Notes under the pieces: generated by a model | Database searches by the model: none | Told to the model about the DNA's origin: nothing | What the model saw: only the letters and a program-made list of their open reading frames with translations | Translations under genes and position numbers: made by a program | Origin: Flavobacteriales bacterium | Lineage (GTDB): Bacteria; Bacteroidota; Bacteroidia; CAIKAF01 | Direction: 5' to 3' | Length of the DNA: 64,000 nucleotides | Assembly (NCBI GenBank): GCA_052437175.1 | Contig: JBQVOK010000008.1 | Location: 95,506-159,505 of the forward strand | Shown: positions 6,205-43,038 of the stretch, one piece after another | Numbering within the stretch: the first letter of the stretch is position 1 | Layout of the letters: each line of letters opens with the position of its first letter

Positions 6205-9200
6205 TTACTGCCGTACAAATTTCTGCTTCTGCAGGCCCTGGCGGCTGCGCATTTCGAGTACATACGTGCCTTTGCGCAGGGAAAGGATGTCTATACGAAG
6301 CTGGTTCAGGCCGGCGTTGGCCGCCACGGAACCCGTAAGCACTACCCGCCCCGAAATATCCAGCACACGCCAGTTCATGGCGTCGTCTTCACTTAAGATA
6401 TAATCGGCAAAGATCTGCTGCTCGGCCGGGTTCGGGTACACCATACCTACCCAGAAATCATCATTCAGGTTCCGGCAGCGTGTTTCCGGATCGATGAGTA
6501 TACTATCATTTATCGTATATAGATCTACACAACAGAAATGAAGGGCATTCGTGCCAACGGGGATCAATCCGCTGAATGAATAATTCAGCAAAGCACCCGG
6601 GCCCAGGGAACCATTCCACAATTCCCGGAAACCGGCGCCATAATCTGCGCGGGCACCCAGTTCCAGGTCTGTGATCAGCTGGTTGCCCGTATTCAGCAGG
6701 GTACCTGAAAAACTGATCTTGCCGTTGCTTTCTGCGCATTGTACGTTCATCCATTCGGCCGAAAGTTCGCGCTCGTTCACTACGATCTCTACCGAGGCCG
6801 AATCGGAACAGTTCTGGTTGTTCCCGGCGATCAGCACCAGCGTATACACACCGGTATCGGCATACACCACCGCCCCCGGTTCCTGCAGGTTGCTCTGTAC
6901 CCCGTTCCCGAAGTTCCAGAGATAGCTGCCGGCATTGGTCCCGGTAAATACCGGCGTTACACTCAGCGGCGGTGCGCCGAACGTGGTATTTACGGTAAAG
7001 CTGGCCGTTGGAGCCTGTTTTACATAAATGGTACCTTGCAGTGAATCTTTACAGCCCGCCTGTGTGGTCACGATCAGGCGCACGATACGGCTTCCGCTGC
7101 CCGTATACGCAAATACCGGCTGGGCCGCCTGCGAGGTACCGGCCGTACTGAAACGCCAGAGATAGGAACTGATATTGTCGTTAATACCCGTAGAATTGTT
7201 CAGGAAAGGGATCGGCGTACCGGCACAGATGCTGTCGGGCATGCTGAAATCGGCCAAAGCCGCCTTCGTTACCGGTACGATTTTTGTTTTGTATGCCCGG
7301 CACTGGTTATTGGTAGACACCCGCAGGGTTACCTGAAAGCTATCTTCCGCACCGAAAATAAACTGCGGACTGAACAGGTTGGATGTGCTGCCGTTCCCGA
7401 AGAACCAGGTATACGACTGGGGCGAAACGCCATTCCCGAAGGTAGTGGTATTCTGAAAGACCGTAGGTCCTTCATAGCATACCCCGCTGAAAGTAAAGTC
7501 CGGGTAAGCCCCTTCCTTGATCAGCACGGGGCGGGTGAGCGTACGTACACAACCCGAGTCATTCTGTACCGTAAAGCTTACAAAATACTGACCCGGCAAC
7601 ACATAGGTATGTTTGGGCGCAGATACCGACGAGCTGTTTGCTGCCCCGGAAGCCGGATCGTTGAAATTCCAGGCATAACTGCTTATTCCTCCCGCATTCG
7701 GCAGTGCATGGCCTGTAAAAACCGTACTGTCGTTATTGCAGGTATCGGCATAACTGAAGCTGAGCGCAGGCTGTGCATTTATCGTGATGTTCCGGCGCAG
7801 GGTATTGCCGCAACCGTTATCGGCCAGTATAAAAAGTTCTACCGGGTAAGTGCCCGCTGCAAGGTAAGTATTCTGGGGCTGTGCCAGCGACGAGGTATTC
7901 CCGTCCCCGAAATCCCAGTGGTAGGTAAGTACGTTCTGGTTGCTGCTGGCCGTAAAGGACGTGCCGGCATTCTCGCAGCGCTGTACCGCATCGAAACTGA
8001 TCACCGGCGCCGTACCGTTCAGCAGCACGTTCACCGTATCGTCTGCATAACAGCCGTTCTCATTGGTGGCATGTACCCAGTAAGTGCCTGGGTTACTGAG
8101 TATGATCGACGCGCTTTGCTCGCCCGTATTCCACAGGTAATTCGATCCCGGTCCGCCCGGAACGTTCAGCTGCAGACTGTTGTTGAGACAGAGCGTGGTA
8201 TCATTGCCCAGGCCGGCCAGGGGAAAAGGATCGTTAAGTACCTGCACCGTGTCCGAAGTAAAAACACAGCCCGTAGTGGTCTGGGTAACCGTTACATAAT
8301 AGAGACCCGGGCTGCTGATCGTCAGTGCGGTATCTGTGCTGTTGTCCGACCACACAAAGTTGTACGAGGCCCCGGGCAGGTTGGTCTGCCACACACGGCT
8401 TCCGCCCTGGCACAGGTAGTTTACGGGAGGCAGCTGGTTAAATGCCGACAGGCTGGCTACCCGCACCGTATCGGAATACGTATTGCCGAAACCGTCGCTC
8501 ACCTGTACCCAGTAAATACCGGGCGAGGTTACCGGCAGGGCGGCTGTGGAAGCGCCCGTACTCCAGAGGTACGATGCATAACCTGTACCCGCGTTCAGGG
8601 TTATAAGCCCGCAGAGCGGATTTACGCTGGTATCCCGGCCCAGGTTTACGGGCGGCAGGTAGCGCTGGGTAAGAAAATCTTCGGTCAGGTTGCGGAGCGA
8701 ATCGTTATGCTGCTGGTTAAAGAATATCATTTCTGCCACTTCCATCTGCGAAGTAGCCAGCACCGAAGAATTGGAATAACTGGCATTGCTGCCGAGTATA
8801 AGCGGTGCATTGGGATTGATGCTGTATGTCTGAGCCGTACCGGAGCCCACCAGGGTACCGTTGCGGTAGAGGCGGGCCGTTGTGGTATTGTCGAGCGCGG
8901 TGAACATACGGTAGGTATTGCCCGGGCTGGAAATAAAATACTCCGCGGCCACCCCGCCCCCATTGCTGGCCCACAGGAAATTAGCGCCCCCGTTGTAGTT
9001 ATAAGCCGCCCGGTTGTGCTGGTTCGGGGTAAAGGTCGTAAAATTGGCCATGGTAAATATAAAACCATAGGCCTGGGGCTGGGTATTGAGCTTGCCCAGG
9101 AAATACACCTCCATGGGGTCTGTATTGGCAATGGCGCTGCCTTTGATATTGGTGGTGAGCTGCCTTACACTCCCGTTAAAATGCACAAAAGGCTTGTTGC

Positions 9201-38876: not shown

Positions 38877-40066
38877 ATCTTAATTAATTCTCCGCTGAAA
38901 ATGTAAATGGCAAAAGCCACGGCATTAAACAGTATAAAGATCGAAATATATTTTACCGCCGTAGCGGGCAGTTTACCGAAAAATACATCGCGCCCGTTTT
39001 TCTTGCAGAGGTACGTATAGTAATTGTGAATAACGGAATACAGGCCGAACAACATACCGCTCATGATATAATGCACACGAAACCCGTTCCAGAAACCCAT
39101 GAGCGTAAATGTGAAAAAAAGGGCCAGGTTCTGGCGCTGTATGGGTTTGAACATTTTTTTGGTGGTCAGCTCCTTGAACACCGGCTTAAAGAAGTAGTCG
39201 TTGAGCCAGTCGCCCAGGGTCTTGTGCCAGCGCTGCCAGAATTCCTTTGGGTTTATGGACGTAAAAGGACGATTGAAGTTATAGGGCACACGGATACCGA
39301 TCATGTGGCCGAAGCCCATGGCCAGCAGCGAATACCCTGCAAAATCGAAGAAAAGATAAAAGAGGTAGGTATACATGTATGCTGCGTGGAACAGCAGGCT
39401 GCCGTCGTTCACGAGCCGCAGCAGCAGGGCCTGGTTAATGATCTCTGCAATGATGAATTTATAGAGCAGTCCGCGTACAAAATAATCGAGCCCTTCCAGG
39501 AAAACGGGCATGCTTATGCCGGCGTACCCTTTTTGCACATCTGTGTCAAATCTCTGCAAGCGATCGATGGGGCCGATCAATAAAGTAGGCACGAATGTCG
39601 TAAAATTAAAAAAGCGCAGCGGGGATACGGTTCCCGGTGCGTCTTTTTCATCGATATACAGCTGCACTACGCGGAACGTGATGTACGAAAGTCCGGCTAC
39701 CTGCCACAACAGGGCCATAACTCCCTGCAATCCCTTCCCGTCCTCTGCGGCAGGCAGTACATTGGTCAGCTTCATCAGCACCAGGGGCAATACCAGCAGC
39801 AGCACGGGCAGCAGTAAGCCCTGTACCTTTAATTTACGGCCCAGGAAATAGTATATACCATAGGAATAGGCCAGCAGTGCCAGCAGTTGCAGTGGTTTGG
39901 GAAAAAGCACGAACAGGTAAAAGGCCGAACTGAAGGCCAGCAGCCAGCGGTAAGGAATCCATTTTGCCGGGAGAGCCTTTGCCAGCAGGAACAGCAGGAT
40001 CACCGCCGCCATATAGGTAAAGAACGGCAGGGACGTAAAAGGCAATATGTCGCTGAACGTAAACAT
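38873..40066 (-). CDS. MBOAT-family membrane O-acyltransferase (DltB/AlgI-like)
   Basis: 397 aa polytopic; MBOAT histidine region FWQRWHKTLGDWLNDYFFKP; ATGA overlap with the ligase gene. Confidence 0.85.
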   Translation of the reverse strand: MFTFSDILPFTSLPFFTYMAAVILLFLLAKALPAKWIPYRWLLAFSSAFYLFVLFPKPLQLLALLAYSYGIYYFLGRKLKVQGLLLPVLLLVLPLVLMKLTNVLPAAEDGKGLQGVMALLWQVAGLSYITFRVVQLYIDEKDAPGTVSPLRFFNFTTFVPTLLIGPIDRLQRFDTDVQKGYAGISMPVFLEGLDYFVRGLLYKFIIAEIINQALLLRLVNDGSLLFHAAYMYTYLFYLFFDFAGYSLLAMGFGHMIGIRVPYNFNRPFTSINPKEFWQRWHKTLGDWLNDYFFKPVFKELTTKKMFKPIQRQNLALFFTFTLMGFWNGFRVHYIMSGMLFGLYSVIHNYYTYLCKKNGRDVFFGKLPATAVKYISIFILFNAVAFAIYIFSGELIKI

Positions 40067-40215
40067 CAGAACTGCTGGTATACAAAATCGACCTTAGATC
40101 CGGAAGCCCCGTCCCTTTTGAATATCCTCATTTCGTATATAAATACGTAACCCAGCAGCAGCAGGGCATACACAATGGTATTGCGGAATATGCGGTTCTT
40201 CAGGATATTTTTCAT
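40066..40215 (-). CDS. Unannotated 49-aa single-TM ORF (DltX-like), translationally coupled on both sides
   Basis: Hand-translated MKNILKNRIFRNTIVYALLLLGYVFIYEMRIFKRDGASGSKVDFVYQQF; its ATG overlaps the TGA of the DltD-like gene (ATGA), and its TGA overlaps the ATG of the MBOAT gene. Confidence 0.45.
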   Translation of the reverse strand: MKNILKNRIFRNTIVYALLLLGYVFIYEMRIFKRDGASGSKVDFVYQQF

Positions 40216-41396
40216 GGATAGCTTGTTTTTAAGAAACGGCTGATCTTGAGCCAGCCGTAATCGCCCAGGTGCATGATATCGCGCAGGGTGCCGGGTTCGT
40301 AGTCTTTTTTGTCGCTTACGAACATATTAAAGCAGGGATAGCCTTTGCTGCGGATGCGTTCTTCGAGCAGGGCAATGATCTCGTTGTATTTTTCAAGGTC
40401 GTGGTAGTAATAGGGATTCAGGGGTTGTATCACAAAACTGGCGCGGACATTACGGCTTTCGAGCAGGTTCAGCAGCAGCATAAAATCGGCCAGTTCCCGG
40501 TTGGTAGCCGGCGGGTCCGGCTCAATGGCCTTCGCCTTGCGCGGAACACCCTGCTCATCCAGCAGGTATTTGCTGTAGTACGCGTTGCCCACATACAGTT
40601 CATTATTCGTAACAGCGTGTACAAAGGTGTCCTGCAGTTGTTTGAGGCGTTTGTCCCAATCGATATGGATCTCCGGCCTTGACGGAATATCCGCCGTTTT
40701 CACCTCGTACTTTACCCCCTGCAATGTGCTTCCCCAGGATTCCACAAAAGAATGATAGAGCGGAATATGGCGGCTGCGGTACAGGGCACTAAAATAACTG
40801 AGCGTAGGCCCGGGGTCCTCTATCTCGCTGCGGTGCTCGTATACAAAGCGGGCTACTTCCATGCGGGCTTCTGGCTGCAACCGCGGGTTGGTGGCAATGG
40901 AACGCAGAAAGGCCGGACGTACGAACTCCAGGAAAGCCTGGGTATGGGTGCCCTGGGTATCGAACCAGCCCGGACTGATGACAAAACAGATGCGTGAGCT
41001 GTCGAGGAACTCTTCCATGGCCAGCAGTTCGCAATACATGCTGAAGGACTGGTGATAGGCATGTCCGTAACCTATGGCAGGCATATTGAGACTGTCCGAC
41101 AGAAAAAAGTAAGAAGAATAGCGGTCGCTGCCGAGCTCCGAAGAACCCATGATGGTGAGCACCCGTGGGTTTTTAAGGGCTGCGGCCAGTTCCAGCTCAT
41201 CCTGCGGGCCGGCCACACAATTGGAAAAATTACCCCGCACGCGCTGCTGGGTACCCGAAATGATCTCATCCTGCACAGGGCTGCCGCAGCTGCGTACATA
41301 CAGCGTGAACAGGGCCATAAAAAGCCCCGTGACACATACACCTATACAGAGAGGAAGCAGGTGAAACCGGAACAGATCACCTATGTGTTTTTTCAT
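40212..41396 (-). CDS. DltD-like membrane-anchored SGNH-type protein
   Basis: 394 aa, N-terminal TM anchor (LLPLCIGVCVTGLFMALFTLYV), periplasmic domain with a GSSELGS motif; position between the carrier protein and MBOAT matches dlt operon organisation. Confidence 0.55.
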   Translation of the reverse strand: MKKHIGDLFRFHLLPLCIGVCVTGLFMALFTLYVRSCGSPVQDEIISGTQQRVRGNFSNCVAGPQDELELAAALKNPRVLTIMGSSELGSDRYSSYFFLSDSLNMPAIGYGHAYHQSFSMYCELLAMEEFLDSSRICFVISPGWFDTQGTHTQAFLEFVRPAFLRSIATNPRLQPEARMEVARFVYEHRSEIEDPGPTLSYFSALYRSRHIPLYHSFVESWGSTLQGVKYEVKTADIPSRPEIHIDWDKRLKQLQDTFVHAVTNNELYVGNAYYSKYLLDEQGVPRKAKAIEPDPPATNRELADFMLLLNLLESRNVRASFVIQPLNPYYYHDLEKYNEIIALLEERIRSKGYPCFNMFVSDKKDYEPGTLRDIMHLGDYGWLKISRFLKTSYP

Positions 41397-41614
41397 TTTT
41401 TAGCGGCGATGTATTGCGTAATAAGCTCCACCGTTTCAAAATGTTCCACCGTGATCTCGTTGAACGGCACCTTGATACCGTATTCATTTTCGATCTCCAC
41501 GGCCAGCTCCACGATGGTGATGGAATCGAGTATCCTCGACGACCAGAGGGGATCGTTCTTTCCCACCTTTGCAAATGCGATCTCGTGGATCTTGCTGATC
41601 AGAAATTCTTCCAT
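41393..41614 (-). CDS. Acyl/D-alanyl carrier protein
   Basis: 73 aa; phosphopantetheine attachment motif LDSITIVELAVEIE (DS[IL] serine). Confidence 0.8.
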   Translation of the reverse strand: MEEFLISKIHEIAFAKVGKNDPLWSSRILDSITIVELAVEIENEYGIKVPFNEITVEHFETVELITQYIAAKK

Positions 41615-41717
41615 AGATATCCTGCTACTTTGGCGCGAAAGTACAAATTTTTCGGGTTGAAAAGCAGTACCGGCCTCTGCATTAAAGGCTCTGTTCGCTA
41701 TAGTCGCGTTTTTTGTC

Positions 41718-41725
41718 TACTTTTG
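41718..41725 (+). promoter_or_regulatory. Bacteroidetes-type -7 promoter element TAnnTTTG (TACTTTTG) upstream of der
   Basis: TACTTTTGCGG 9 nt upstream of the der ATG; the identical 11-mer recurs at 49415. Confidence 0.3.
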
Positions 41726-41733
41726 CGGTTGAA

Positions 41734-43038
41734 ATGAGTACGATAGTAGCCATAGTCGGCAGACCCAACGTAGGTAAAAGCACCTTATTCAACCGGCTTA
41801 CCGAAAGCCGCGAAGCCATCGTGGACCCCAGCAGCGGTACCACGCGTGACCGTCATTACGGCAAATGTGAATGGGGCGGACGGGAATTTACCGTGATCGA
41901 CACCGGCGGATACATCAGCGGAAGCGACGATGTATTCGAAAGCGAGATCAACAAACAGGTAAAAATGGCCGTGGACGAATGCGATGTGGTTATTTTCATG
42001 ACCGATGTGACCACCGGTACCACCCATCCCGACCTGGCCGTGGCCGATATGCTGCGCAAGTCGAAAAAGCCCGTGTTCATCGTGGTGAACAAAGTGGACA
42101 ATTCGATGCGCGAGAACGACGTACACGAATTCTACGGACTGGGTTTCGGAGAGATCTTTGCTGTTTCCGCACAAAGCGGTTCCGGCACCGGCGAACTGCT
42201 CGATGAGATCATTAAGCATATTAAACCCGAAGAGGAACAGGAAGAGGACGTACTGCCCAAACTGGCCGTTGTTGGCCGCCCCAATGTGGGAAAATCGTCC
42301 TTTATCAATTCCCTGCTCGAGGAAGACCGCAATATCGTAACCCCCGTGGCAGGTACCACGCGGGATACCATCCATACCCGTTTCAATAAGTTCGGTTTCG
42401 ATTTCTGGGTACTGGATACCGCCGGCCTCCGCAAAAAATCGAAGGTTACCGAAAATATTGAATTTTACAGCGTACTACGCACCATACGTGCCATAGAGGA
42501 ATGCGATGTGGCCATCCTGATGCTGGATGCCACCCAGGGCCTCGAAAGCCAGGACCTGAACATTATACACCTGGTGGAAAAGAACCACAAGGGCCTGGTA
42601 GTGGTGGTGAACAAGTGGGACCTGGTAGCCAAGGAAACCAATACGGCCAAGGCTTTTGAAGAAAGAATATACGAAAAAACGGCTCCGTTCCGCGACTTTC
42701 CCATCATATTTACGTCCGTACTGAACAAACAGCGCGTACTGAAAGCCCTGGAAGCCGCCATGGAAGTTACGGCCAACCGTCAGCGCCGCATTAAAACGGC
42801 CGAACTGAACGAGTTCTTCCAGCCCCTGCTCGACGAGTTCCCGCCACCGGCCATCAAAGGCAAATACATTAAGATCAAGTATGTAACGCAGTTACCGGGC
42901 CACTACCCTACGTTTGCGTTCTTCTGTAACCTGCCGCAGTACGTAAAAGATCCGTACCGCCGTTTCCTGGAAAATAAACTCCGCGAAAACTTTAATTTTC
43001 ACGGGGCGCCTATCCGCATTTTCTTCCGTCAGAAATAA
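41734..43038 (+). CDS. der: Ribosome-biogenesis GTPase Der (EngA), two G-domains plus a KH-like domain
   Basis: [19 protein letters not shown] (G1) and a second [19 protein letters not shown]; start at the internal ATG at 41734. Confidence 0.95.

Follow-up and report, generated by a model that had tools for sequence, protein, structure and literature searches.

DltX is a membrane microprotein with an invariant Tyr in a C-terminal FXYXXF motif, the so-called acyl shuttle motif; D-Ala from DltB is taken over by this Tyr, which then delivers it to DltD, at the catalytic Ser (PMC12148441; PMC13653941). In B. thuringiensis, DltX is essential for D-alanylation (PMC5541007). Members of the family (PF12459/DUF3687), such as those of S. 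aureus, S. thermophilus, B. thuringiensis and L. plantarum, are 40-60 aa long. Their basic N-terminus is followed by a single transmembrane (TM) helix, which has a conserved Tyr close to its beginning and L-Y close to its end; a short linker outside the cytoplasm then leads to the C-terminal [FY]xYxxF, in which the Tyr is invariant. Their genes are located first in the operon, in the order X-A-B-C-D, together with the partner genes dltA, dltB, dltC and dltD. The need of DltB for DltX in order to function has been demonstrated in Firmicutes only.

Two other systems are related to this one. First of all, PatA/AlgI-type bacterial MBOATs also use FxYxxF, on which an acyl-Tyr intermediate is formed and passed to an SGNH partner (PMC12148441); the MBOAT itself carries the motif in these proteins, by fusion through two additional TM helices, and acyl-CoA serves as donor. 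The second is dra of Bordetella (BP2987-BP2991), which is reported as five genes adding D-Ala to an outer-membrane component (PMC9410548; PMC9858536).

The stretch of DNA analysed here, which is called the window in the following, comprises 64,000 nucleotides of a Flavobacteriales contig. Between the genes of a DltD-like protein and a DltB-like MBOAT it carries a small ORF, designated ORF X, which probably encodes a divergent DltX orthologue, that is to say, the acyl-carrying microprotein of a Dlt D-alanylation-type pathway. An X protein in a dlt-type operon is to be expected from the known Dlt mechanism. It is less usual for a whole Gram-negative branch to lie outside the family models and to have as its partner an MBOAT without the canonical catalytic histidine. 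Flavobacteriales are not known to have teichoic acids.

ORF X and the operon around it

The sequence-only reading had placed a 49-aa ORF between the two genes, and analysis of the letters and their open reading frames located ORF X at exactly those positions, 40066..40215 on the minus strand. Its peptide, MKNILKNRIFRNTIVYALLLLGYVFIYEMRIFKRDGASGSKVDFVYQQF, is encoded by 49 codons and a stop. The initiation codon is ATG (40215-40213), which is the earliest start codon past the upstream in-frame stop, and the termination codon is TGA (40068-40066). Overlapping stop and start codons on both sides had also been described, and both could be confirmed: ATGA is formed by the start of ORF X and the stop of the DltD-like gene (TGA at 40212-40214), and TGATG is formed by the stop of ORF X and the ATG of the MBOAT gene (40064-40066), which have one base in common.

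In the peptide, hydropathy and charge analysis predicted one TM helix, as the sequence-only reading had proposed, at residues 13-29 (TIVYALLLLGYVFIYEM, 40129..40179, minus strand), which is the single hydrophobic 17-mer of X and has a mean Kyte-Doolittle value of 1.8; the N-terminal segment carries a net charge of +5 and the C-terminal tail one of +1. The aromatic C-terminal tail noticed at the same time corresponds to the hexapeptide F44-V-Y46-Q-Q-F49 (40069..40086, minus strand, with the Tyr46 codon at 40078-40080), which agrees with the FxYxxF of DltX, and the stop codon comes right after F49. The window contains 1,710 stop-to-stop segments that are 20 aa or longer, and none but X has the ending F.Y..F, for which 0.16 occurrences are expected from composition. 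The description of the ORF as unannotated does not wholly hold, since an identical peptide is already present in NCBI (MGQ3013966.1, "MAG: hypothetical protein [Flavobacteriales bacterium]"). X-type ORFs have likewise been predicted by gene callers on several other metagenome assemblies.

ORF X is the third of five minus-strand genes, in the order carrier protein, DltD-like protein, X, DltB-like MBOAT and DltA-like enzyme, which overlap successively by 4, 4, 1 and 4 nt; in this translationally coupled operon X is accompanied by all four Dlt partners. The same linkage of X with the four partner genes is seen in relatives. The first gene encodes a DltC-like carrier protein of 73 aa (41393..41614, minus strand), which matches PF00550 at 4.5e-6 and the NCBIfam DltC models at 2.8e-8 and 4e-5, below cut-off; Ser31 in DSIT (codon 41522-41524) is its predicted phosphopantetheine site, and the first of the 4-nt overlaps joins its stop to the start of the DltD-like gene. 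The DltD-like SGNH-type transferase of 394 aa (40212..41396, minus strand) matches PF04914 at 5e-43, TIGR04092 with 116 bits (cut-off 150) and the PDB structure of DltD 7dxm at 1.7e-8, and it has an N-terminal TM anchor, a GSSE motif (Ser85/86) and D373-x-x-H376. Downstream of X, the DltB-like MBOAT of 397 aa (38873..40066, minus strand) matches TIGR04091 at 5.8e-76 with 256 bits (cut-off 375), and it aligns end to end with S. thermophilus DltB (6bug, 1.3e-43), residues 9-394 against 13-407. The last gene encodes a DltA-like adenylating enzyme of 494 aa (37392..38876, minus strand), with matches to NF003417 (9.7e-130, 433 bits, cut-off 476) and to the PDB structure of DltA 3fcc (2.2e-95). The scores of all four large Dlt-like proteins stay under the equivalog cut-offs of NCBIfam; these proteins are related to Firmicute Dlt proteins without being close orthologues.

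The operon is limited by a divergent der-type GTPase gene on one side and by the convergent atpC and atpD on the other. Between the convergent DltA-like gene and atpC, 38 nt past the DltA-like stop, a consensus scan found a terminator-like hairpin (37339..37354, minus strand) of 6 bp, GC-rich and followed by the T-rich tail TATTTTATTG. This hairpin probably marks the operon end, and it may act as a terminator, possibly a bidirectional one. Rfam found no RNA family in 37000-42100, and a sigma-70 promoter scan stayed at background (5 found, 4.7 expected), with a consensus that does not cover Bacteroidota promoters.

Kinship with DltX and the proposed acyl transfer

The relationship of X to DltX is seen most clearly when the two families are compared as profiles. 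An hhalign comparison of 20 Bacteroidota X peptides with 20 Firmicute DltX sequences gave a probability of 96.4% (E 1.4e-9). The Bacteroidota family is aligned over its full length, from the basic N-terminus through the TM helix to the motif, with a Bacteroidota linker about 7 residues longer. Together with the FxYxxF motif, this match supports the DltX-like character that had been read from the letters. With an HMM of 34 DltX sequences from Firmicutes, too, X was the best match in the window, though a weak one (9 bits, E 0.11).

Annotation models, in turn, do not reach this branch. The window X has no match to Pfam DltX (PF12459) or to NCBIfam even at E <=1, and among the 20 Bacteroidota peptides 8 have sub-threshold matches to PF12459, the best with 20.1 bits, where the gathering score is 25, whereas the Staphylococcus DltX used as control reaches 51.3 bits. 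The X peptides of Bordetella, Achromobacter and Aliarcobacter gave no Pfam DltX match, and none of the Gram-negative-type X peptides tested reached the Pfam DltX threshold. A profile search of a collection of 5.8 billion proteins returned 67 relatives, every one of them named hypothetical protein at its source, and only 3 of these 67 have a precomputed PF12459 match. With the single X peptide as query, a word-indexed search found near-identical copies only, and an exhaustive phmmer search found five proteins only, all of which end in DF[IV]YQQF or EFIYQQF. The sole PDB match of the X profile, Piezo2, was set aside as a chance match (E 4.4), and a literature search for dlt in Flavobacteria or Bacteroidetes gave nothing relevant. 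Judged by the profile alignment, X is homologous to DltX and belongs to a divergent branch not recognised by the annotation models in current use. If so, a function can be assigned to a class of genes of about 50 aa, called hypothetical or not called at all, in the dlt-like operons of Bacteroidota, Campylobacterota and Betaproteobacteria, and the acyl shuttle on a separate microprotein would reach beyond Gram-positive bacteria.

In its construction X follows Firmicute DltX closely, with respect to the size range, the basic N-terminus, the single TM helix, in which Tyr and L-Y again stand close to the beginning and the end, the short, predicted extracytoplasmic linker, the C-terminal motif with the invariant Tyr, and the dltA, dltB, dltC and dltD partner genes. 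They differ in further respects: the motif is YQQF in X and YNEF or YTEF in Firmicute DltX; the host of X is Gram-negative; and X lies between dltD and dltB, in the order C-D-X-B-A, and not at the head of the operon. With this caveat on the position, the earlier remark that size and position recall DltX is supported. The 20 aligned Bacteroidota X peptides all have Y16, F44, Y46 and F49, and conservation of at least 90% is seen for Y27 and Q48; Y16 and Y27 lie within the predicted TM helix. The N-terminal segment has a positive net charge in 25 of 26 family members, and the charge of the C-terminal tail is at most +1 in all; by the positive-inside rule, an N-in/C-out topology is therefore predicted for X.

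From these parts, the following pathway can be proposed. The DltA-like enzyme would adenylate D-alanine, or else an amino acid of comparably small size, and load it onto the 73-aa carrier protein, and the loaded carrier would then dock at the cytoplasmic face of the DltB-like MBOAT. Through the MBOAT, the acyl group would be transferred to the hydroxyl of Tyr46 in the periplasmic FVYQQF tail of X; the tail, anchored by the predicted N-in/C-out helix, would swing to the GSSE serine of the DltD-like protein, and this membrane-anchored SGNH protein would finally hand the acyl group to a putative envelope acceptor. For this route we infer acyl-Tyr chemistry with D-Ala as the acyl group. Compared with PatA/AlgI-type proteins, the motif is common to both, but in the window it is placed on a separate peptide, and the donor would be a carrier protein loaded by the DltA-like enzyme instead of acyl-CoA. 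Tyr46, or the equivalent Tyr in Bordetella dra, would offer a precise mutational handle on what these Gram-negative systems modify.

It may also be considered that the group moved by the dlt-like operon is another one, a small acyl or aminoacyl group destined for an acceptor other than teichoic acid, and that X shuttles that group. The sub-cut-off NCBIfam matches of the DltA-, DltB- and DltD-like proteins are consistent with this, as is the Gram-negative nature of the organism. The Cys of FCGE is credited with the D-Ala selectivity of Bacillus DltA, and in several Bacteroidia DltA-like proteins (L009-L023-type loci) FCGE is replaced by FMGEELP or FAGEVIP, that is, Cys gives way to Met or Ala in some relatives, which hints at an altered substrate selectivity in part of the Bacteroidia clade. 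The window enzyme, however, keeps SFDLSV, FLFCGEVLP and NTYGPTEATV, which it has in common with Firmicute DltA in the sampled loci, and dra of Bordetella, an operon of the same type, is reported to add D-alanine to an outer-membrane component (PMC9410548; PMC9858536). A different cargo is thus regarded as unlikely, and X is still best understood as a DltX-type carrier in a D-alanylation-type pathway.

Active site of the partner MBOAT

A conserved histidine is the hallmark of MBOATs (PMC10213974), and in DltB it has been described as "the invariant His336" and the active residue (PMC11035591). In the window MBOAT, the position of His336 of S. thermophilus DltB is occupied by Asn327 (39086-39088; MGFWNGF vs MGFWHGI), and that of the active-site Tyr345 by Ser336 (39059-39061), whereas His289 of DltB is kept as His281 (39224-39226). 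The substitution is not peculiar to the window: Asn and Ser are found at these two positions in 31/31 loci with the order C-D-X-B-A, namely the window and 30 fetched loci (L001-L023, L025, L026, L031, L033, L040, L042, L049), in contrast to His and Tyr in 50/50 loci of Firmicutes, Verrucomicrobia and Chloroflexi. The presence of Pro295 or of Arg splits along the same clade line. His332 was considered as a shifted stand-in for His336 and rejected, being Gln, Asn or Tyr in several relatives.

Because His336 is changed to Asn and Tyr345 to Ser, the canonical transfer chemistry of Firmicutes cannot be assumed for this MBOAT. With Asn at the canonical position, His281 becomes the likely base, and the most economical reading we infer is that His281 would probably act as base with Asn327 as its hydrogen-bonding partner. 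That such a system is functional in spite of Asn and Ser is indicated by the dra locus of Bordetella. The dra operon and the dlt-like operons of Achromobacter have the same D-X-B-A order as the window, with an ORF of 41-69 aa ending in EFQYQQF directly upstream of the MBOAT, and their MBOATs (L025, L026, L031, L033, L040, L042, L049) carry the same WNG...SG active-site variant; they belong to another phylum, however, and the MBOAT identity is only about 35%. As a tentative extension, possible rather than probable, the Gram-negative C-D-X-B-A Dlt systems could form a mechanistically distinct MBOAT subclass, working either with a swapped His281/Asn327 pair or with peptide-assisted catalysis, and acting on a non-teichoic acceptor. 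The His336-to-Asn variant, if it is catalytically competent, bears on the mechanism of MBOATs in general.

The altered active site is also an argument for a second alternative, in which X is a real, conserved subunit of the MBOAT-DltD complex but serves as a membrane adaptor, be it structural or regulatory, while the acyl group takes another route: without the canonical His336 and Tyr345, the Firmicute chemistry may not apply, and one structural paper has proposed a regulatory role for DltX and DltD (PMC11035591). Such an adaptor would not need an invariant C-terminal Tyr, yet the only invariant residues in the predicted extracytoplasmic part of X are the F-x-Y-x-x-F positions, the Tyr included, and this pattern is the acyl-carrying one in both DltX and PatA (PMC12148441). 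A mere adaptor is therefore quite improbable. The window MBOAT, unlike PatA-type MBOATs, ends in ...IYIFSGELIKI without an FxYxxF motif, and hence it needs a shuttle on another protein, a place that X as an acyl-carrying microprotein would fill.

Conservation and selection across genomes

A scan of one genome per species with an alignment of the MBOAT yielded the sample of 80 dlt-type loci. A same-strand small ORF ending in [FY]xYxxF was found in 78 of the 80, and in all 30 fetched loci with the gene order of the window, so that the conserved small ORF expected at orthologous junctions is indeed there. A complete ORF ending in F.Y..F is present in 67 of the 78 positive loci; two more are cut by the contig end and still keep ...FVYQQF or ...FVYEAF, one has an X ORF without ATG in the expected range, and the remaining eight are of Bacillus type, with YIYTEF or YIYNDF (L024, L030, L034, L036, L039, L041, L059, L076). 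These last endings mean that the first position of the motif is F or Y, and not strictly F. The two other loci, L066 (a Gemella MAG) and L080 (Clostridium sp. UBA2485), were the only ones among the 80 in which an X-type ORF was not found near dltA or the MBOAT gene.

The gene order separates the groups. Every Bacteroidota, Chlorobiota, Aliarcobacter, Achromobacter and Bordetella locus has the order (C)-D-X-B-A, with X directly upstream of the MBOAT; counting the window with the 30 fetched loci, 31 loci have C-D-X-B-A, with 29 complete X ORFs and 2 cut by the contig end. The distance from the end of X to the start of the MBOAT in these loci is at most about 20 nt, or 85-303 nt where the tblastn match starts late. 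In bacilli and lactobacilli the order is the classical one, X-A-B-C-D.

Purifying selection on the codons of X, the absence of which had been named as speaking against the gene, was found in both comparisons made. Between X and L081, whose peptides are 90% identical, there are 9 synonymous and 5 non-synonymous changes (dN/dS 0.125), a synonymous excess with a binomial p of 7e-4, and the comparison with L082 gave a dN/dS of 0.153; the genes flanking X have values of 0.05-0.13, which are close to those of X. ORF X is thus a real gene, conserved and under purifying selection. That it is only a chance open frame, untranslated, in a 150-nt spacer, as its shortness, its G+C of 0.43 against 0.52 for the operon and the want of a family match might suggest, is effectively refuted by the synonymous excess, by the frame, length, TM segment and C-terminal motif kept across phyla, by the start and stop overlaps on both sides and by an F.Y..F ending that occurs once in 1,710 ORFs.

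Several further arrangements were observed in the sample. Some clostridia have the order D-X-A-B-C (L037, L050, L069), and Candidatus Udaeobacter has C-X-A-B (L056, L065); X adjoins D in more cases than one would expect from the order dltXABCD given in textbooks. X-bearing dlt-type loci also occur in Verrucomicrobia and Chloroflexi MAGs (e.g., Chloroflexia L075). In Streptococcus oral taxon 061, S. timonensis and Gemella bergeri, there is a second MBOAT-DltD pair, and after it comes an X-like ORF belonging to that pair (7187-7318 and 7650-7781 in L055, the same coordinates in L063, and 7413-7571 in L027), ending in DFIYSEF or EFVYSNF. In the two streptococci, this second pair is located just upstream of the canonical dltX-A-B-C operon, and the additional MBOAT-DltD-X set suggests a paralogous acylation module with a microprotein of its own.
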